Source: a virus (lineage: Duplodnaviria; Caudoviricetes). From it: a DNA stretch of 26,325 nt. Positions 2,102 to 23,751 of this stretch are shown here, piece by piece (position 1 is the stretch's first letter; every line of letters begins with the position of its first letter). The notes beneath the pieces were generated by a model. That model did not search any database. It saw only the letters and a list, made by a program, of their open reading frames with translations, and was not told where the DNA came from. A program made the position numbers and the translations under genes. The stretch lies in IMG/VR virus record IMGVR_UViG_3300030331_003157, positions 1-26,325 of that record; one strand, written 5' to 3'.

Positions 2102-2145
2102 CAGATTAGATTCTATATATTTGTTAAAAAACTCTATTTATTTTG

Positions 2146-2175
2146 TTGATAATTAAAAAAAAAGTGTTATATTTG
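2146..2175 (+). promoter_or_regulatory. Bacteroidota/Flavobacterium housekeeping-sigma promoter
   Basis: TTG (2146-2148), 19-bp spacer, TATATTTG (2168-2175), matching -33 TTG / -7 TAnnTTTG. A second TATATTTG lies at 2116-2123. Confidence 0.75.
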
Positions 2176-2489: not shown

Positions 2490-2508
2490 TAATTAAAACA
2501 AATACAAA

Positions 2509-2634
2509 ATGGAAAATTTAAAAACAATTAAAGAGATTAAATATGAGTTATGGTTTGACAAAGGTTACGACTACTCATATCTTAATAAGATTAGTATTCC
2601 TGAATTAAAAGGAATTTATTATTCACACTATTAA
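2509..2634 (+). CDS. Small hypothetical protein, 41 aa (moron ORF2; not in the ORF track)
   Basis: MENLKTIKEIKYELWFDKGYDYSYLNKISIPELKGIYYSHY*. Leader AAAACAAATACAAA-ATG; fills the gap between ORF1 and ORF3. Confidence 0.7.
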   Translation: MENLKTIKEIKYELWFDKGYDYSYLNKISIPELKGIYYSHY

Positions 2635-2645
2635 AAACAAAACAA

Positions 2646-2831
2646 ATGGGAAAATTTAAAGACATGTCCATAGAAATTCAGAGAGACGAAAGGTTAATGC
2701 CTACTCAAAAAAAACTATTAAAAACAGCAAACATGGTGCAGCTTTTAAATGAATTAAGAGACGTTAAGTTGTTTAAAAAAGAATTAGAGAAAGAGATAGA
2801 AAAAAGAATAAAAGAAGAAAATAATATTTAA
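2646..2831 (+). CDS. Small hypothetical protein (moron ORF3)
   Basis: 61 aa, leader AAAAACAAAACAA-ATG, charged helical C-terminus. Confidence 0.72.
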   Translation: MGKFKDMSIEIQRDERLMPTQKKLLKTANMVQLLNELRDVKLFKKELEKEIEKRIKEENNI

Positions 2832-2872
2832 AAATATTTTCCTAAATTTAGGAGATTTTGTTTTGTATTGAG

Positions 2873-2900
2873 GGGAGATTTTTTAGTCTCCCTTTTTTTT
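2873..2900 (+). terminator. Intrinsic terminator
   Basis: GGGAGA...TCTCCC stem followed by T8. Confidence 0.85.
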
Positions 2901-2955: not shown

Positions 2956-4242
2956 ATGGGAATAATAGACAATATCAGAAACGTTTTTAAAAGAAATTAC
3001 AGTCCTGAAAATCCTTCAAATCCAATTATACCGCCTTTAGATTACGGTCAGTCAACATCCTCGGGAGTTGATATTAACGAATCTAACTCGTTAACGTTGG
3101 CTGCGGTTTGGGGTTGTATAAGAACCCTCTCAGAGTCGGTTGCTTCGTTACCGATAAACGTCTATCAAAGAGACATGCAAACGGGAGGACGAGACGTTGC
3201 TTACGCTCATCCGATTTATAATTTATTACATAATGCACCTGCAATGAACATGACTTCATATTGTTGGTTTAATACAATGATGTTAAATTTGTGTTTATAT
3301 GGCAACGCTTATGCTCATATTAAGAGAGATAAAAGCATGAGACCAATTGACTTAGTTATCTTAGACCCTTCAAAAATAAAAGTTACTTTAGTTAAAGGAG
3401 AGAAATTTTATGTTCAAACTTATGAAGGCAAAAAAATAACTTATTCAGATAATGAAATAATCCATATTTTAGGATTGTCAACAAACGGATATATAGGAAA
3501 ATCTCCAATTTCTGCGGCTAGAGAAAACATCGGACTCGGTATAGCGTCACAGCGTTACGGGGGTGCGTTTTTTGGGAACGGTGCTTCGTTGTCAGGGGTT
3601 TTAGAACATCCTGCAACTCTATCAAAAGAAGCAATGGAAAGACTGGCTCACACATGGAATCAAAAATATAGTAACAATGGAGGAGCTAATGCTCATAAAA
3701 CAGCAATCTTAGAAGAAGGCATGAGCTTTAAAAATATATCAATTCCGCCAAATGAAGCTCAGTTCATAGAAACAAGAAAATTCTCAGTTGTTGAAATATG
3801 CAGGATTTTTAGAGTGCCTCCTCACTTGGTTATGAGTTTAGACGCTGCGACTTATTCGAATATTGAACAGCAGTCTCTCGAGTTTGTTAAGTATACGCTT
3901 TATCCTTATTTAAGAAATTGGGAACAAGAGTTAAATAAAAAATTATTTAAAGAAAACGAAAAAAGTCGATTATATTGTGAGTTTAAAGTTGACGGATTAT
4001 TGAGAGGAGATTCGAAAAGTCGTTCTGAGTTTTATAGAACTTTATGGAACATGGGAGTTATTTCACAAAACGAAATCAGAAGTTTTGAAAATTTAAACGC
4101 TATTGAAGGAGGAGACAAATATTATGTTCCATTAAACATGACTCCTGCGGACGCTCTAAAAGAGCCGACAGAATCAGTCGAGACAATAAAAGTAGATGAG
4201 GAGAAATCAAAAAAAGTTAATAACCGAAAAAAGAAAAAATAA
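2956..4242 (+). CDS. Portal protein, HK97 family
   Basis: AVWGCIRTLSESVASLP, LCLYGNAY, GKSPI, ILEEGM, EICRIFRVPPHLV, SNIEQQ, NEIRSFENL. ATG 2956 preferred over the TTG at 2920. Confidence 0.96.
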   Translation: MGIIDNIRNVFKRNYSPENPSNPIIPPLDYGQSTSSGVDINESNSLTLAAVWGCIRTLSESVASLPINVYQRDMQTGGRDVAYAHPIYNLLHNAPAMNMTSYCWFNTMMLNLCLYGNAYAHIKRDKSMRPIDLVILDPSKIKVTLVKGEKFYVQTYEGKKITYSDNEIIHILGLSTNGYIGKSPISAARENIGLGIASQRYGGAFFGNGASLSGVLEHPATLSKEAMERLAHTWNQKYSNNGGANAHKTAILEEGMSFKNISIPPNEAQFIETRKFSVVEICRIFRVPPHLVMSLDAATYSNIEQQSLEFVKYTLYPYLRNWEQELNKKLFKENEKSRLYCEFKVDGLLRGDSKSRSEFYRTLWNMGVISQNEIRSFENLNAIEGGDKYYVPLNMTPADALKEPTESVETIKVDEEKSKKVNNRKKKK

Positions 4243-6221
4243 TGCCTTACGTTAATTTTAATGTTGCTAGAGTTAGAAATAATAATGATTTCAAACAGGA
4301 TTCATTTAGGACAATAAAAGGAGGAGAGCATATGTTTCCAAAAGCGGGACTTGTTGTCGTGCCTGACGAAATCAGAGTTATTTCAGGACAGCTTAAACAA
4401 GTAGAAAATGAACAATATAGAGCTCCAATGGAGTTATTGTTTCCAATTGACAAATATCCCGCAGAATCGGACGTCAGGACATGGCTAGAAGACGAAAATA
4501 TTGAAATGATTAATTACTATCCCGCAGGAGAAGGCAAAATGGATGATGAGGAGGAGGAAAGAGCTTTAGAGGATATTGATTTAACTCCGACAGACGCAAT
4601 GATTAATGAGGCTAAAAAAGGTTTGGAATGGAGAAAAGAATTTAACAGAGGAGGGACAGACATCGGAGTCGGCACAGCAGAAGCTATTATTAACAAATCA
4701 ATCACTTTAGACAGAGTCAAAAGAATGTTTAGTTATTTTAGCAGACATGAAGTTGATAAAAAAGCCGAGGGTTTTGAATACGGAGAGGACGGGTTTCCTT
4801 CGAACGGTCGTATTGCGTGGGCCTTATGGGGAGGAGACGCAGGTTTTGAATGGTCACAAAGAAAAACAGAGCAAATAAAAGACGAGGAGGAGAGAAATAT
4901 ATATTTAGTAATGGGATGTTCATGCTCAGGAAAATCAACTTATATAAGAAACAACGCAAAATCAGGAGACTTAATTTTTGATTTTGACAAAATACATCAA
5001 GCGTTAACAATTAGCGAGAAACATCAACACAATGATATTATTAAAAAATATGTTTTTGAAATTAGAGACGCAATTTTCAATAAATTAAAAAGAGATAATA
5101 ATATTAAAGCATGGATAATTAATTCGTCTCCATTAAAAGACGTTAGAAAAAAATTAGTTAATCAATTAAACGCAAAAGTTATTTATATTCAAAGAGACAA
5201 AGACGACTGTTTAAAAATCGCAGAAAACGAAAGACCTGAAGAATATAAAAATTATATTAATAATTATTTTAATGATTTTGACGGTTTTGATGATGACGAA
5301 AATATTGAGATTATACAAATAGATAAAAAAAATCTAACGACACAAGAAAAAACAAACAAGAGAGACATTATCGGATATTTAATAACAGACGGAATTGAGC
5401 TTCCATTATTTGAGACAATAGAAGAAGCTCAACAAGAAGCCGAAAGATTAGGCGGGAACGGTTATCATGAGCATAAAGTCGATGACGTTATTTATTTTAT
5501 GCCTTTTGAAAGTCATGCAGAAGCAATGAATGTTTTAAAAGAAAATAATATCTCTGAAGAAAAAAAAATAAAAGAATATAATAATTTTAAAATTAATAAC
5601 ATGGAAAGAAGAATATTTGCTAACGAGTTTCGTGTCGTTGATGACAAGAAAAAGAAAAATAAAAAAATAATCGGATATGCTTCAGTTTTTTATAATGAAG
5701 AAAAACGTTCAGAATCAGAAAATCTAGGAGGTTTTTATGAGCGTATAAATCCGAGAGCTTTTGATAAAGTTATCGAAGAAAAACAAGACGTCAGAGCGTT
5801 GTTTAACCATAACGCAGATTTAGGCGTTTTAGGTCGCACAACATCAGGGACTTTGAAATTAGAAGTTGACGAAAAAGGTTTGAAATATGAGATTGACACT
5901 CCTGACACTCAACTAGCAAGAGACTTAGTTGCTTCAATGGAGAGAGGAGATATTTCTCAAAGTTCATTCGGTTTCACAATTTCTGAAAACGGAGATTCTT
6001 GGGACGAGGATTCTGACGGGAGAACTATAAGAACAATCAATCAAGTTGAACAGCTGTTCGATATTTCTCCAGTTGTATATCCTGCATATACTGACGCTTC
6101 AGTTGCATTAAGGAGTTTTAATAACTACAAAGAAAACAAACAAAAAACAGAAAACACGAAAGAAAAAACAGACTTACACGAGAGAAATTTAAGAGAATTA
6201 AAATTGAAAATAATTAAATAA
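4242..6221 (+). CDS. Multidomain HK97-type prohead protease (protease in aa ~454-659; four N-terminal domains including a P-loop kinase-like domain)
   Basis: C-terminal IGYASVF, LFNHN (His), SSFGF (Ser), DISPVVYPAY. Walker A GCSCSGKS at 4914-4937. Lies between portal and capsid genes. Confidence 0.9.
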   Translation: MPYVNFNVARVRNNNDFKQDSFRTIKGGEHMFPKAGLVVVPDEIRVISGQLKQVENEQYRAPMELLFPIDKYPAESDVRTWLEDENIEMINYYPAGEGKMDDEEEERALEDIDLTPTDAMINEAKKGLEWRKEFNRGGTDIGVGTAEAIINKSITLDRVKRMFSYFSRHEVDKKAEGFEYGEDGFPSNGRIAWALWGGDAGFEWSQRKTEQIKDEEERNIYLVMGCSCSGKSTYIRNNAKSGDLIFDFDKIHQALTISEKHQHNDIIKKYVFEIRDAIFNKLKRDNNIKAWIINSSPLKDVRKKLVNQLNAKVIYIQRDKDDCLKIAENERPEEYKNYINNYFNDFDGFDDDENIEIIQIDKKNLTTQEKTNKRDIIGYLITDGIELPLFETIEEAQQEAERLGGNGYHEHKVDDVIYFMPFESHAEAMNVLKENNISEEKKIKEYNNFKINNMERRIFANEFRVVDDKKKKNKKIIGYASVFYNEEKRSESENLGGFYERINPRAFDKVIEEKQDVRALFNHNADLGVLGRTTSGTLKLEVDEKGLKYEIDTPDTQLARDLVASMERGDISQSSFGFTISENGDSWDEDSDGRTIRTINQVEQLFDISPVVYPAYTDASVALRSFNNYKENKQKTENTKEKTDLHERNLRELKLKIIK

Positions 6222-8302: not shown

Positions 8303-8818
8303 ATGGCTAAAGGACTTCCATTAATGAAAAAAGGTTTATTGACAGCTGAACTTGTTGACAATGACGATGTTAAAAAGTTTTTAAAAACACTCCCTGAAGG
8401 TTATAAAAGACGTTTTTTAATATCTATATTAAGACAAAACTCAAAACCATTTATTAAAGCGGCAAGACAAAACCTATCAGCTTCAGTCGAAGGACAGTCA
8501 ACAGGATATTTAGCAAAAAGTATAGGATTTAAAGTTAAAAGAACTAAAAACAAAGACGTTGTTTTTGCAGGAGTTAGACCAAATGCAAACAAAAAATATT
8601 CAAAACAAAAAATCGGAAACGAAGAAGTCAGGACAGCTTCTTATGCGGTTGGTATTGAGTGGGGCATGTATAAAGGCGTTTTCTCGGGTTTTGGTTACAT
8701 GAGGAAGGCTTATGAGTCTCAAAAAGCCTTAGTTCGAAAAAACATGGTTAAAGACGCTCAGGAGGTTATCGAAAAAAGAACAAAAAGAATGTTAAAAAAC
8801 GGTAAATATAAAAGATAA
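8303..8818 (+). CDS. HK97 gp10-like neck/tail completion protein
   Basis: Basic protein with TGYLAKSI, YAVGIEWG and YMRKAYE motifs, plus synteny. Confidence 0.8.
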   Translation: MAKGLPLMKKGLLTAELVDNDDVKKFLKTLPEGYKRRFLISILRQNSKPFIKAARQNLSASVEGQSTGYLAKSIGFKVKRTKNKDVVFAGVRPNANKKYSKQKIGNEEVRTASYAVGIEWGMYKGVFSGFGYMRKAYESQKALVRKNMVKDAQEVIEKRTKRMLKNGKYKR

Positions 8819-9905: not shown

Positions 9906-9947
9906 TTAATATTATAGGGAGGAGTTTTCTCCTCTCTATTATATTAA
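9906..9947 (+). promoter_or_regulatory. Long RNA hairpin after the tail tube gene (attenuator, stabiliser or processing site)
   Basis: TTAATAT-T-ATAGGGAGGAG / TTTT / CTCCTCTCTAT-T-ATATTAA. Followed by an A-run, not a U-tract. Confidence 0.7.
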
Positions 9948-10696: not shown

Positions 10697-13215
10697 GAAG
10701 TGTTACGGTAAATTTAGGAGCTAATATTAAAGATTTTAGAACCAAAATGCAACAAGCCGAGAAAACTTTTACAAAGTTCGGAAAAAAAATGCAAAACACG
10801 GGCAAATCTTTGACAATGGGTTTGACGTTACCGTTAGCAGGATTCGGAGCTCTTGCTGTTAAAACTTTCGATAAACAAGAAAAGGCAATCGCACAAGTTG
10901 AAGCGGGTATTAAATCAACAGGAGGAGCAGCGGGTTTCACAGCAGACGAGTTTAAAAAAATGGCTGCCGACTTACAAAAAGTTACAATTTTCGGAGACGA
11001 AGACATTTTGCAGGGAGCAACCGCTCAGCTTTTAACTTTTACAAATATAGCAGGAGAGCAATTTCAAAGAACTCAAGAAATCGCGTTAGACTTAGCGACT
11101 AGATTAGACGGAGATTTAAAAAGTTCGTCAATTATGTTAGGTAAAGCGTTGAACGACCCTGTTGCCAATTTATCTGCATTAAGTAGAGCGGGGATTCAGT
11201 TTTCAGATGAGCAAAAAAAGACGGTTAAGGCATTAGTTGAAACAAACCGACTTGCAGACGCTCAGACTTTAATATTAAACGAACTAGAGAATCAATATGG
11301 AGGCTCAGCTCAGGCAGCTGCTCAGGCAGGTCTCGGACCTATACAACAACTGAAAAACTCTTTCATGGATGTTACCGAACAAATCGGAGCAATATTAATC
11401 CCGCACCTTCAAAAATTAGCTACATTTATAAAAGGCATAGCAGACAAATTCGCAAATTTAGACACAGACACAAAAGAATTAATTGTCAAAATTGGAATGA
11501 TTGCAGCAGCTTTAGGACCGTTGTTAATGGCTTTCGGAAAAGTTATGATTATAATTCCAAAAATAGCAAGAACAATGGCAATGCTAACAGGACCAATAGG
11601 ACTAATCGTTGGAGCTTTAGCAATGGCAGCTGTTTTGATTGTTCAAAATTGGGAAAAAATAAAAGAATATTTTACATCAGGAGAAGGCTCTCAAATGTTT
11701 ACGACTATTAAAGAAATCGTTATTCAGACAATGTCATTAATTAGCAAAGTTGTTCAGGTAACAGTGCAATTCATTGCTGACATTTGGGCGAGGATAGGTC
11801 CATTTGTTATGAAAATAGTTACTAGAGTTTTTAACGTTATTGGTAACACTATTAAAACAGTATTAAATTTTATTTTAGATATTTTAGGATTTTTTCAGAG
11901 AATTTTTGCGGGAGGTTGGGAAGGTTTATTCAATGGTATAAAAACATTTTTTGTTAAAATATGGCGTTCAATAGTTAGATTTTTATTAAAGGGTTTAATT
12001 ACTGTCATGAAAGGCATGAAAAAACTTCTTGAGGCTTTTGGAGCAAAAAAATTAGCTGCTAAGGTTGACAATACAACAAGCAGTTTAGAGAATTACGGAA
12101 ACGGTTTGAAAAATGTTGCTAACGGAAGCGTCAGCACAGGCAAAGATATAAAAAAATTCAATAAAGAATTAAAAGAACAAAAAGACACAACTAAGGACGT
12201 AGTTGACGAAACGCTTGATTTAACAAAAGCAACTGAAGGATATAACAAAGAAATTGACTTGTCAAATATTGATACGACAAATAAAGATTTGAAAAAAAAC
12301 AAAAAAGCTACTTTTGACGCAACGGAATCAATGAAAGAGTTTACAACTCAATTCGAAGCTATTGACAAGAAAGCCGAAGTTTTTGGAGAAATGGGCAAAG
12401 ATTTTGACGCGAACGCTGAAAAAGCTAGTTTAATTGAGTCTCAAATTACAACTTTAATAGACAACGGGATTGACCCTGCGTCAGACGAAATAAAAAAATT
12501 AAAAGATGAGTTTGCAAAATTAGGAAAAGAAGGAAAAAAAACTAGCGAAGATTTAGCAAAAGGATTGCAAAAATTTGCTGACACAGCAGGGACAATCATG
12601 TCGGGTGTTGGTGCGATATTTTCTCAATATTTCGAAATGAAAATGCAGGGACTTGAAAATGACCAAGCTGCTGAAGAAGAAGCATTGCAGAAAGCGTTTG
12701 ACAATCAAGTTGAGGACATAGAAAATTCAACAATGAATCAACAATTAAAAGACGCTAAATTGCAAGAACTTCAGGAGACTCATGACGAAAACATGACAGG
12801 CGTTCAAGAGAAGTTTCAGCAAAAAATGGCTCAACAAAAAAAGAAACAAGCAATCGCAGACAAAGCAATGGCAATAGCAAACGCAGTTATAAACACAGCT
12901 GCGGGGGTGGCTTCCGCTTTACCAAATATCCCACTGGCGGCAGTTATTGGAGCAATGGGAGCGGCTCAGGTTGCCTTAATAGCTTCAACTCCTATTCCTG
13001 CAATGGCACAAGGAGGAATCGTGACTGGTCCTACAACTGCCCTCATCGGAGAGGCGGGTGCTGAGGCGGTTATTCCGTTAGACAAATTAAGCTCTATTAT
13101 GGGAGAGCAAACGCAAACAGTTAACGTAGTGGGTAAAATATCAGGAGACGATATAATTCTCGTTTCAGACAGAGCAAAACAAAACAGAACACGTGTAAGA
13201 GGTATAAATAGTTAA
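10684..13215 (+). CDS. Tail tape measure protein
   Basis: 843 aa, helical and Ala/Gly-rich. N-terminal VTVNLGA, GKALNDP, amphipathic aromatic repeats, C-terminal MAQGGIVTGPT..GEAGAEAVIPL. Confidence 0.95.
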   Translation: MAGLGSVTVNLGANIKDFRTKMQQAEKTFTKFGKKMQNTGKSLTMGLTLPLAGFGALAVKTFDKQEKAIAQVEAGIKSTGGAAGFTADEFKKMAADLQKVTIFGDEDILQGATAQLLTFTNIAGEQFQRTQEIALDLATRLDGDLKSSSIMLGKALNDPVANLSALSRAGIQFSDEQKKTVKALVETNRLADAQTLILNELENQYGGSAQAAAQAGLGPIQQLKNSFMDVTEQIGAILIPHLQKLATFIKGIADKFANLDTDTKELIVKIGMIAAALGPLLMAFGKVMIIIPKIARTMAMLTGPIGLIVGALAMAAVLIVQNWEKIKEYFTSGEGSQMFTTIKEIVIQTMSLISKVVQVTVQFIADIWARIGPFVMKIVTRVFNVIGNTIKTVLNFILDILGFFQRIFAGGWEGLFNGIKTFFVKIWRSIVRFLLKGLITVMKGMKKLLEAFGAKKLAAKVDNTTSSLENYGNGLKNVANGSVSTGKDIKKFNKELKEQKDTTKDVVDETLDLTKATEGYNKEIDLSNIDTTNKDLKKNKKATFDATESMKEFTTQFEAIDKKAEVFGEMGKDFDANAEKASLIESQITTLIDNGIDPASDEIKKLKDEFAKLGKEGKKTSEDLAKGLQKFADTAGTIMSGVGAIFSQYFEMKMQGLENDQAAEEEALQKAFDNQVEDIENSTMNQQLKDAKLQELQETHDENMTGVQEKFQQKMAQQKKKQAIADKAMAIANAVINTAAGVASALPNIPLAAVIGAMGAAQVALIASTPIPAMAQGGIVTGPTTALIGEAGAEAVIPLDKLSSIMGEQTQTVNVVGKISGDDIILVSDRAKQNRTRVRGINS

Positions 13216-13878: not shown

Positions 13879-13910
13879 CAAATTCTTTTTAAAAGACGAT
13901 ATAAAATAAA

Positions 13911-15965
13911 ATGGCTTTATATAATAGATATAAAAACGAGCATTATTCTGAAAACGGGACTCTTTGGAAATTAGAAATTTTAGATTCTACTTTGTCCTCA
14001 GGAAACATGGACACTGAGTTTGATTTGACGCCAACGGGCGTCACTGTAAAATGGGACGGAGAAAACGACGAACGTTATCAACCAATAAAAGGAAGCTCTT
14101 GCAACTTTACAATGATGATAACAAACGCAACTTTAAACGGTTTTTTAGCATTATTAAGAGCAGCAGACGAGGGGCGTTTTACTGTTAAATTATCTTATTT
14201 TAGGAGTTCGTCTTGGGAGGTTTATTGGAGAGGTTTTATTGTAGCTGAAAATTTAGCCGAGGAGGACGTTGATTATCCTTTTGAGTTAGACGTAGAAGCA
14301 ATTGACGGATTAGGTAGATTAAAAGATTTGCCTTTTAATCATGTTGCAACATATAACGCAGGGACAGGATATAAAGCTCTAGCATATATAACAGACATGT
14401 TATCTTTGTGCGGTTATATTGCAGACTTCGGGACGGGAAATACCTTTTTATATACAATGGTTGATTTATACGAAGACTCCATGTCTAATATAGGAGCTCA
14501 GGCTTCTGACCCTGTTGAGAAAACGCAAATATATGCAGACGCATTTTTGCAAATAGACGAAAACGGAATCGAGAATCCTGTTTCCGCTTTAGAAGTTTTA
14601 GAAAATATCTGCAAAGTTTTCGGAGCAAGAATTTTTCAAAGTCGGGGAGCGTGGTATTTTATACAATTGCAAAGGTATCAAACAACGGGGACGGTTGAAT
14701 ATAGGCGTTATGACGAAGCGGACAACGCTCTCGGTAATGGGACTTGGGATTTAAACAAAATAGCGGGTTCAAGTTTTGTTGTCACTTTAGACGATACAAA
14801 TATTATAAAACTAGCGGGAATGAAAAAAGAGTTTTACGAGCCTTTGTTTAGAGCTGCGATAACATATGACACTTTTGGGAAAACTAGTTTATTAAAAGTC
14901 ACTCCGTCAAATCAATTCTCAGGAGGAACAGCGTCAACTCATGTTTTAGGAGCTTTAACAGCTACCGCTAACGATGCGATTGAGGTTTCTTGGTGGGTAA
15001 GCACAGACATTGTGACTAATAGTTTTAATTATAGCACTACTATCAACGGCTTTTCGGGTGCGTTGACAGCTTTTCAATATGTGGGCGTTCAATTATATAA
15101 TGACCACACAACGAATGAATATTGGGACGAGACGAATCAAGTTTGGGACTCGTCAGGAATACCTGTAACAAATTATTTTCAGGTGCAAAATTTAGGATTA
15201 CCAGTGACAGGGACAAATTTCGCAAGTCCTCAAACGGGAAGTTTTAATTTTATAACCGCTGAGCTTCCGAGAAGTGCTATTTATAGCATTAAATTTTCTG
15301 CTGAGCCTTGGGTTTTAGGGACAGGGACTTTAGCCACTCCTCCAAATGGAAGCGGTCAAGTTTCGGCAAGTTCAACAGCTTCAGTCGCGGCACAAGCTCC
15401 TCATCCTGTCACACAATTCATGAGTCCTTCTAAAAATTACGGACGTTATGTTTTATATAGCGTTGCGGGTAATATAACTGTTAAGCAAGATTATTTTTCA
15501 CAAGTTGGGAACGGTGCTTCGCTAGAATATCAGGACGAGGTTTTAATTGGAGACGGACCAACTAACGCCAGTGTCGGAAGGCTCGAAGTATGGAACGGTT
15601 CGGCTTATGTAGTTGCGGACACATGGCAACAGTCTCAAGCGGGGACATCAGCAACCTTATTAAATTTAATGGCGGAGTTAATTTTAGGGGGTCAGCGTGT
15701 TTTCGTTGACAAAAACCAAATGACAATATATTTAAAAGGTGGAGCGGGATATATTGTGGACTTTACAAACTCAATTAAAATCACAGAGGACTCGACAGAT
15801 TTTCGATACATTCCCAACGGGTTTGAAATTCAGACAGGACTTGACGAAGTGTCGGGAGAATGGTTTAAAAGCGTTTTAGATACTTCTTCAAGCACGAATA
15901 CAACAGTTCCCTCATATGTTACAACAAACACCAAAAAACCGAATAAAAACGCATATTTTAAATAG
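13911..15965 (+). CDS. Minor tail protein (tail tip/hub-like)
   Basis: 684 aa, beta-rich, first large gene after the tape measure. YWRGFI, EAIDGLGRLKD and LENICKVFGARIFQ resemble tail-hub proteins. Confidence 0.7.
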   Translation: MALYNRYKNEHYSENGTLWKLEILDSTLSSGNMDTEFDLTPTGVTVKWDGENDERYQPIKGSSCNFTMMITNATLNGFLALLRAADEGRFTVKLSYFRSSSWEVYWRGFIVAENLAEEDVDYPFELDVEAIDGLGRLKDLPFNHVATYNAGTGYKALAYITDMLSLCGYIADFGTGNTFLYTMVDLYEDSMSNIGAQASDPVEKTQIYADAFLQIDENGIENPVSALEVLENICKVFGARIFQSRGAWYFIQLQRYQTTGTVEYRRYDEADNALGNGTWDLNKIAGSSFVVTLDDTNIIKLAGMKKEFYEPLFRAAITYDTFGKTSLLKVTPSNQFSGGTASTHVLGALTATANDAIEVSWWVSTDIVTNSFNYSTTINGFSGALTAFQYVGVQLYNDHTTNEYWDETNQVWDSSGIPVTNYFQVQNLGLPVTGTNFASPQTGSFNFITAELPRSAIYSIKFSAEPWVLGTGTLATPPNGSGQVSASSTASVAAQAPHPVTQFMSPSKNYGRYVLYSVAGNITVKQDYFSQVGNGASLEYQDEVLIGDGPTNASVGRLEVWNGSAYVVADTWQQSQAGTSATLLNLMAELILGGQRVFVDKNQMTIYLKGGAGYIVDFTNSIKITEDSTDFRYIPNGFEIQTGLDEVSGEWFKSVLDTSSSTNTTVPSYVTTNTKKPNKNAYFK

Positions 15966-21259: not shown

Positions 21260-21330
21260 TTTTTTATATTAGACCACTTAATTTCTTCATAAGTATTTGT
21301 TTGGCTTAAAAACTTTGTTTTTTTGTTGAG

Positions 21331-21361
21331 GAGGAGTGGATTCGTTCTGCTCCTCTTTTTT
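21331..21361 (+). terminator. Intrinsic terminator ending the late operon
   Basis: GAGGAGTGGA / TTCGT / TCTGCTCCTC followed by T6. Confidence 0.85.
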
Positions 21362-21379
21362 ATATAACTAACAAAATAA

Positions 21380-21454
21380 TGTTAATAACTTATTTTTAAC
21401 AATTTAGATAAAATGTTTAAAAACATTAAATTAGCATAAACAAATTACAAAACA
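21380..21454 (+). promoter_or_regulatory. Probable early-operon promoter/operator region
   Basis: -7-like TAAATTAG (21427-21434), inverted repeat AATGTTT-AA-AAACATT (21412-21427), TGTTAATAA (21380-21388), ACAAAACA leader. Confidence 0.5.
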
Positions 21455-21703
21455 ATGTATATAAAATTAAGAGAAAAATTAATTAACGATTTAAAGCATT
21501 TAGAGAAAATGTTTAAGGAATATCATGTCCCTGTTAATTTACCTTGGGACGAAATCAAAAAAGAAAAAAGAGAGATTATTTTGCAAAATTTAGTCACAAG
21601 ATTAAACACTCAATTAAACACATTTTTAAATCACAAACCGTCTTATAATGACTGGATGACTGAAATTGCAGAAGACATTAAAAAAACAAATGAAAATGAA
21701 TAA
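21455..21703 (+). CDS. Hypothetical protein
   Basis: First ORF after the terminator/promoter gap. Confidence 0.72.
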   Translation: MYIKLREKLINDLKHLEKMFKEYHVPVNLPWDEIKKEKREIILQNLVTRLNTQLNTFLNHKPSYNDWMTEIAEDIKKTNENE

Positions 21704-23328: not shown

Positions 23329-23751
23329 ATGAAAAACAATACAATTATAGAGGAGGAAATTAATATTATTAAAACCGCAGTTAATGAGTATTACGATTTA
23401 AAAGAAAAAGAAGTTTTGTCAAAAGACAGACACAGAAACGTCATGGAAGGGAGGAGATTAATTTGCTATATTTTGAGACATGACTTAGGCATGAAGTTTC
23501 AAAACATTGCTAAATGTTTAAATTTAAATCATAGCTCTGTCATATATCATTGTAAGACATTACAGGGATATTTAGACAATAAAGATAGCAAAGCGATAAA
23601 AGATTATAATTTTGTTATAAGCTCTTTAAATGCTGACAACACAACTATTGATTTGGTCAAAAACATTAAAGACATCGACAAAGACTTAAAAAGATTAACA
23701 CAAAAAAAAGATAGGTTAATAATGTTATTAAATAAAAAACAAAATATATGA
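23329..23751 (+). CDS. DnaA domain IV-like HTH protein
   Basis: SKDRHRNVMEGRRLICYILR...FQNIAKCLNLNHSSVIY matches the Bac_DnaA_C pattern; C-terminal coiled coil. Confidence 0.85.
   Translation: MKNNTIIEEEINIIKTAVNEYYDLKEKEVLSKDRHRNVMEGRRLICYILRHDLGMKFQNIAKCLNLNHSSVIYHCKTLQGYLDNKDSKAIKDYNFVISSLNADNTTIDLVKNIKDIDKDLKRLTQKKDRLIMLLNKKQNI

Follow-up and report, generated by a model that had tools for sequence, protein, structure and literature searches.

The 3′ tail of a small gene cassette in a tailed phage carries a U/G-rich tract that is complementary to the leaders of the genes on the same transcript, and this element is real, conserved and recurrent. With a probability of roughly 0.55 we read it as a negative-feedback device, in which the tail of the cassette transcript, acting in cis or released as a stable 3′ fragment, would pair with positions −10 to +2 of the cassette genes and limit their translation. 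The window, that is, the whole stretch of 26,325 nt that was analysed (IMG/VR record IMGVR_UViG_3300030331_003157), is nearly the whole genome of a small HK97-like tailed phage, as judged from its gene content: terminase subunits, portal, protease, capsid, tail genes, holin, an exonuclease-like gene, a replication module and an HNH gene. The small terminase gene has no start in the window, and the relative L001 reaches 206 nt further. INPHARED yielded only distant terminase relatives, all below 60% identity. The head maturation protease (4242-6221, 659 aa) has extra N-terminal domains fused to it, a P-loop-like segment included, and matches several PHROG families. The source phage is uncultured and marine and carries Bacteroidota-type signals. 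Its leaders are A-rich and without Shine-Dalgarno runs, and a box search of the window found TAnnTTTG boxes upstream of the cassette, a motif that we take to be part of the Bacteroidota-type −33/−7 promoter consensus. Hosts of the Bacteroidota initiate translation without Shine-Dalgarno guidance. From the leaders and the boxes together we therefore infer a Bacteroidota host.

The cassette lies between terminase and portal and consists of a promoter-like sequence, three small ORFs, a short UTR (41 nt) and a terminator (Table 1). The −7 box of its promoter recurs unchanged in L001, L002, L807, L809, L810, L813 and L815, and from there to 2900 (2176 to 2900) the + strand has no further TAnnTTTG box. 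A terminator scan of the + strand found none between 1 and 2870 and none from 21358 to the window end; because no terminator separates the terminase genes from 2870, terminase read-through would stop at the cassette terminator. Both in the stretch 2176-2831 and at this junction in L001, L002, L809, L810 and L813-L815 the gene cassette is hypervariable, and its repeated leaders could be exchange points. In L814 the cassette includes glutamine amidotransferase and gamma-glutamyl cyclotransferase genes.

Table 1 Features of the cassette, the tract and related sites (window positions unless a relative is named; ranks are among 48 start regions)
Feature	Position	Strand	Remarks
Promoter-like sequence of the cassette, Bacteroidota-type	2142..2175	+	TTTG/TTG 2142-2148, TAnnTTTG 2168-2175; putative activity
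ORF1 leader, AAAC repeats into start codon	2185..2203	+	pairing 2192-2203; best predicted target, rank 1/48
Cassette ORF1, 95 aa	2202..2489	+	no family hit; unrelated ORFs instead in relatives
ORF2 leader, predicted target	2495..2509	+	rank 2/48
Cassette ORF2, 41 aa	2509..2634	+	no family hit
ORF3 leader, predicted target	2634..2646	+	rank 4/48
Cassette ORF3, 61 aa	2646..2831	+	no family hit; final gene before the element
Small hairpin directly 3′ of ORF3 stop codon	2840..2853	+	
U/G-rich anti-leader tract (predicted)	2855..2869	+	invariant core 2857-2866
Intrinsic terminator, 11-bp stem and U-run	2870..2900	+	stem 2870-2895; fold z about −4
Start region of late gene 13911 (684 aa, structural; tail gene)	13897..13912	+	same leader in L810
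Second U/G-rich 3′ UTR, before late-operon terminator	21284..21327	+	tracts kept in L818, anti-start-codon letters not
Terminator closing structural/late unit	21328..21358	+	
Leader of first replication/early-module gene	21446..21455	+	predicted weaker target
DnaA-type helix-turn-helix protein	23329-23751		PF08299
Hammerhead-like stretches in relatives	L001:3018-3080, L002:2689-2751, L809:2339-2401, L810:2648-2710, L813:328-390, L814:3351-3422		

An earlier note on this DNA had reported that the tract is complementary to four leaders, and all four matches proved exact, with reverse complements at 2192-2203 (12 nt), 2501-2509 (9 nt), 2637-2646 (10 nt) and 21446-21455 (10 nt), each extending to the start codon. 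The complementarity also exceeded that of shuffled controls, one of the comparisons on which the note had staked its claim (p = 0.0007 for base shuffles of the 15-mer against the four named start regions). Among the 26,310 15-mers of the + strand the tract was the best partner of these four regions on average, and only two paired that well, both of them at the tract site. The three cassette genes form a target set that is fixed by position and independent of the matching. Against this set, dinucleotide shuffles gave p = 0.001 for the 41-nt UTR and p = 0.023 for the leaders, and when the 15-mer itself was dinucleotide-shuffled, 6 of the 360 distinct versions paired equally well. The strand bias described earlier was likewise borne out: TTTGTTT occurs 5 times on the + strand and its complement 33 times, and three of the five + strand copies sit in two terminator-proximal UTRs, for a motif that was chosen after inspection. 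Matches of 10 nt occur outside start regions too (8601-8610 and 13175-13184), and one additional start region with such a match, missing from the earlier note, lies at 23736-23745.

Energy calculations ranked the cassette genes high. With the cost of opening included, pairing reached −10.5 kcal/mol for ORF1, −9.0 for ORF2 and −7.7 for ORF3, and the cassette genes stood apart from the other 45 start regions (p = 0.0001). The predicted duplexes span about −10 to +2 of all three genes, and in-silico replacement of the G's of the tract weakened ORF1 binding to between −3.9 and −5.4 kcal/mol. When the cassette transcript was folded, the tract paired with the ORF1 leader at a pair probability of about 0.9, in a long-range fold that leaves ribosomes on the message out of account. 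In the isolated 3′ unit the tract lies between two hairpins, and its 5′ half is partly paired with an upstream A-run. The predicted pairing energies are modest and the sequence is of low complexity.

Nine relative loci reach the terminase-portal junction, and six sequences were aligned. The conservation in related phages that the earlier note had called for was found: the 10-nt core is invariant in 6/6 aligned loci and is the longest invariant non-coding run of the alignment, while both adjoining hairpins turn over. The terminator stem takes four forms, differing in L809/L815, L810 and L814, and the upstream hairpin of L814 is unrelated sequence in the same place, not in register with that of the window. 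Four-fold sites of the portal gene are only 27-49% identical in L809, L810, L814 and L815 (93% in L002), a contrast that somewhat overstates selective conservation of the core, because the promoter region is conserved as well and the intergenic region as a whole has 78% mean column identity. The cassette genes vary between loci, and the leader type is common to nearly all of them (two of three in L814 lack it). When T/G-rich 15-mers were scanned within at most 9 kb per locus, the tract was the top-scoring site against the locus's own, differing cassette genes in 7/7 loci, marginally so in L814. UTR shuffles gave p values of 0.001-0.017 in 5/5 loci; against leader shuffles the pairing did not stand out in L809 (p = 0.07) and L814 (p = 0.24). 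Cis pairing with the first leader was predicted in the window and in 5/5 relatives folded (pair probability 0.5-0.99). No compensatory change was seen in the close clade, where it is invisible because leader tag and tract are both nearly constant.

These data bear on whether the match could have arisen by chance between low-complexity sequences of an AT-rich genome and been kept by descent only. The modest energies, a local base composition of 24% GC around the element, several further 9-10 nt matches outside start regions and the fairly conserved intergenic region would all suit such an origin. It is largely refuted by the first place of the tract genome-wide, the invariance of the core between hairpins that turn over, and the per-locus top-site and shuffle tests, and we regard it as very unlikely.

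Beyond the close clade, the tract was absent from the junction of the distant portal relatives L004-L011, read by eye. These carry small opposite-strand genes between terminase and portal that end at a two-way hairpin (also by eye). Of the 80 loci retrieved with query P0005, which matched portals, the 20 examined had no comparable cassette. The opposite-strand genes would fit a view of the tract as a relic of an inverted gene start, or of tract and ORF1 leader as arms of an invertible DNA segment, as would the 16-nt arms, 94% complementary, that flank the cassette. Against this, the cassette keeps one orientation throughout, in the window as in each of the 9 close loci that reach it, no recombinase was found among the 44 window proteins scanned against PHROGs, and the minus strand has no start codon behind the tract; an inversion or relic is the least probable of the explanations considered here.

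Directly upstream of their cassette leaders, relatives of the phage also carry stretches that resemble type I hammerhead ribozymes and are absent from the window. The letters of what we take to be the hammerhead core consensus (CUGANGA, GAAA, GUC) are kept. Stem III of L810 shows paired changes, and the stems of L814 are different. An Rfam search did not call these stretches, and a literature search on hammerheads returned no match. Cleavage there would split the cassette message and favour action of the tail in trans. L814 has in addition a hairpin at 4337-4375 whose U/G-rich loop is complementary to a start codon and the codons after it, preceded by another hairpin and a U/G run; it is a candidate loop-type variant of the anti-leader unit.

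The recurrence of the element was surveyed in IMG/VR. A scan for tract, G-stem and U-run returned 119 loci (about 160 estimated), and a C-for-G control 115. Intergenic hairpin terminators without an opposite-strand gene start made up 30/49 G-type clusters vs 6/41 of the C-type control. The tract-plus-terminator unit recurs in many AT-rich phages, and its recurrence in unrelated phages far beyond the control further argues against chance. For covariation, 80 flanked loci were taken for each of three tract spellings (240 in all); filters and a length of at least 4 kb left 129, which formed 69 clusters, and the 68 with at least 4 genes were used as dereplicated loci, with gene starts set by a simple ORF rule rather than a gene caller and kinship handled by clustering alone. 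Tract spelling tracked local leader spelling (permutation p = 0.0065), so that the covariation proposed earlier as a check was found, but it was weak and absent in some subsets. Each leader spelling was commonest where the tract spelling matches, and own-locus pairing beat foreign-locus pairing over the 68 loci (z = −2.25, p = 0.014); within the GT set, which includes this phage, there was no such advantage (p = 0.81), and in loci below 40% GC it was weak (p = 0.11). TTCAT, the complement of ATGAA, preceded the tract in 10/68 loci vs 3.8 in shuffles (p = 0.0075), an excess that is not significant over generic terminators (3/55, p = 0.14). A −33/−7 promoter-like pattern stood directly upstream of the tract in 4/68 clusters (random background 0.4; 1/55 generic terminators, not significant at p = 0.38), L156 having been excluded (from 5 to 4) because its −7 box overlaps the tract. 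In L140, L379, L423 and L534 a promoter-like box, a U/G tract and a terminator follow one another within about 60-90 nt, and these are candidate stand-alone anti-leader small RNAs of other phages.

The survey also informs two alternatives to RNA pairing. The tract may be bound in single-stranded form by a host protein (an RRM protein such as RbpB, S1 or a nuclease), or it may act as a spacer for termination or 3′-end stability, the leader match being a side effect of U-rich against A-rich composition. Both strong terminators of the genome carry a conserved U/G tract, the second without a clear target set (p = 0.135), and the pattern is present in bacterial genomes, though thinly spread (about 380 stretches in 596 Gb) and over mixed taxa. 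RbpB is described as binding single-stranded motifs of Bacteroides small RNAs (PMC11697453). Such a tract precedes only 2/55 generic viral terminators, so that termination does not require it, and a protein or stability site would leave the spelling covariation, the TTCAT excess and the promoter-headed copies unexplained. We consider this alternative unlikely, though it deserves to be kept in mind.

The other places the function in DNA. The portal (late) promoter would have the tract as an upstream element, or a phage protein would bind it and recognize the inverted motif at the cassette leaders as well. As double-stranded DNA, tract and leader are indeed one motif (inverted repeat 2188-2203 / 2855-2870), the core keeps a distance of about 88-103 nt to the portal start codon in aligned relatives, and the genome encodes a helix-turn-helix protein. 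Across phages, however, the tract precedes terminators whatever lies downstream, with a TAnnTTTG box within about 150 nt in 13/68 cases vs 7/55 generic terminators, and the separate palindrome at 2907-2919 is a better candidate operator. A DNA site is accordingly improbable in our judgement. The palindrome itself (GTAAC-N3-GTTAC) is perfect and has its sole exact copy in the window there; L809 and L815 keep its arms and change its spacer, and it could serve the portal promoter as an operator. An antisense promoter at 2911-2918 on the minus strand was rejected, as the −33 box is absent and the letters vary in relatives while the palindrome stays.

The second U/G-rich UTR, before the late-operon terminator, gave mixed results when early and late genes were compared (p = 0.016 in one test, p = 0.135 in another). 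Only L818 is informative on this terminator, because the exonuclease relatives (43-49%) differ in gene order. An anti-start-codon role for 21284-21305 was rejected, since the letters differ in L818. No U/G tract precedes a weaker terminator-like hairpin at 9917-9933, which follows the major tail gene.

The earlier note had gone on to propose that the tract silences a whole class of leaders as an early-to-late switch, with no repressor needed; the genome does encode a DnaA-type helix-turn-helix protein (23329-23751, PF08299). Several findings speak for a pairing role of the tract: its rank, the shuffle tests, its conservation, its register on the ribosome-loading region and, weakly, the covariation across phages. 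The class-wide switch was not supported: by energy, early genes paired no better than late ones (p = 0.32; with opening energies p = 0.40). On opening energies the start of late gene 13911 ranked 3/48, pairing as well as the cassette genes do, that of gene 16794 5/48 and that of gene 21455 6/48. The start of gene 13911, read from the sequence, can pair with the tract over 16 contiguous positions, 3 of them G-U. AAACAA stands just upstream of 10/24 early, packaging or cassette starts vs 1/24 structural starts (Fisher p = 0.004), a skew that appears to count in favour of a leader class. Silencing of the host likewise found no support: in three Flavobacteriales genomes (2.8-4.0 Mb), which are not known hosts, the exact leader motif stood before ATG 3, 4 and 1 times and a reversed control 7, 1 and 0 times. 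Self-limiting feedback fits better than a switch between late and early genes because the tract lies at the end of the transcript it would regulate, and since this transcript carries its best targets, negative feedback on the cassette genes is probably the simplest model.

Under negative feedback, the host-type promoter at 2142-2175 and terminase read-through would both give rise to RNAs with their 3′ end at 2900. Loading of ribosomes on the leaders would precede synthesis of the tail; the finished tail would then fold back onto the ORF1 leader in cis, or a short hairpin-tract-terminator fragment might persist and bind leaders in trans. The pairing would cover unpaired adenines that Bacteroidota ribosomes would require. 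For F. johnsoniae it is reported that adenines at −3, −6, −12 and −13 favour initiation, which is also tuned by mRNA structure (PMC6847099). Cassette protein would be made in a burst that is then shut off, with the cassette muted when carried on the terminase message, and the shared leader tag would place any newly swapped-in gene under the same control.

Known systems work in similar ways. In the icaR mRNA of Staphylococcus aureus, initiation is blocked when a short motif of the 3′ UTR pairs with the site of ribosome loading on its own message (PMC3868564). For the phage, folding predicts a pairing of this kind in 6/6 cassette transcripts. The icaR motif, however, is C-rich and meets the Shine-Dalgarno sequence of one gene from a long UTR, whereas the phage has a U/G tract in a 40-nt UTR and A-rich leaders, without an SD-like purine run, repeated before several exchangeable genes. 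OppZ and CarZ of Vibrio cholerae are 3′ UTR-derived autoregulatory sRNAs that pair with start regions of their own operon in translational negative feedback (PMC7398697). The tract, too, lies in a 3′ UTR and is complementary to start regions of its own operon; OppZ and CarZ are demonstrated RNAs cut out by RNase E, whereas a separate RNA from the phage tail is putative and its predicted target is a repeated leader tag. The FopS family, with GibS of Bacteroides thetaiotaomicron, has a single-stranded seed followed by an intrinsic terminator and pairs around SD-less start codons; one FopS is 3′ UTR-derived, and a copy is reported in a phage (PMC11697453, PMC7366714). In folds of the phage unit a single-stranded 5′ seed likewise precedes the terminator hairpin, apart from the partly paired 5′ half. 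FopS differs in being defined by an R1 seed in a 41-nt motif and in repressing host glycan transporters, whereas the phage seed has 10-15 nt and its predicted targets are the phage's own genes.

By its GC-rich stem and the U-run that follows, 2870-2900 is an intrinsic terminator, and the conserved upstream tract lies outside the standard definition. Rfam 15, a release that may not contain a FopS model, gave no window hit at gathering score and no FopS or GibS hit at E ≤ 1 in L813-L815. The element thus works like icaR, OppZ/CarZ and FopS/GibS in what it is predicted to do, and these tests did not establish membership of any family. In the literature searched, mostly outside subscription journals, we found no description of such tails in Bacteroidota phages.

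To our knowledge, little is known of gene timing in small Bacteroidota phages. With a conserved tail that recognizes the leader tag common to these genes, a phage would have a compact means of controlling whichever gene enters its cassette, and among uncultured aquatic phages the motif seems to be common. If this holds, feedback of the icaR/OppZ type and seeds of the FopS type would extend to self-regulation by phages. More tentatively, and with considerable doubt, we suggest that Bacteroidota-type phages may use a tag/anti-tag code, in which a repeated leader spelling marks a gene class and matching tails or stand-alone small RNAs switch that class off. If true, such a code would provide timing control free of protein, inherited at once by newly acquired cassette genes, and could silence incoming related phages with the same spelling.
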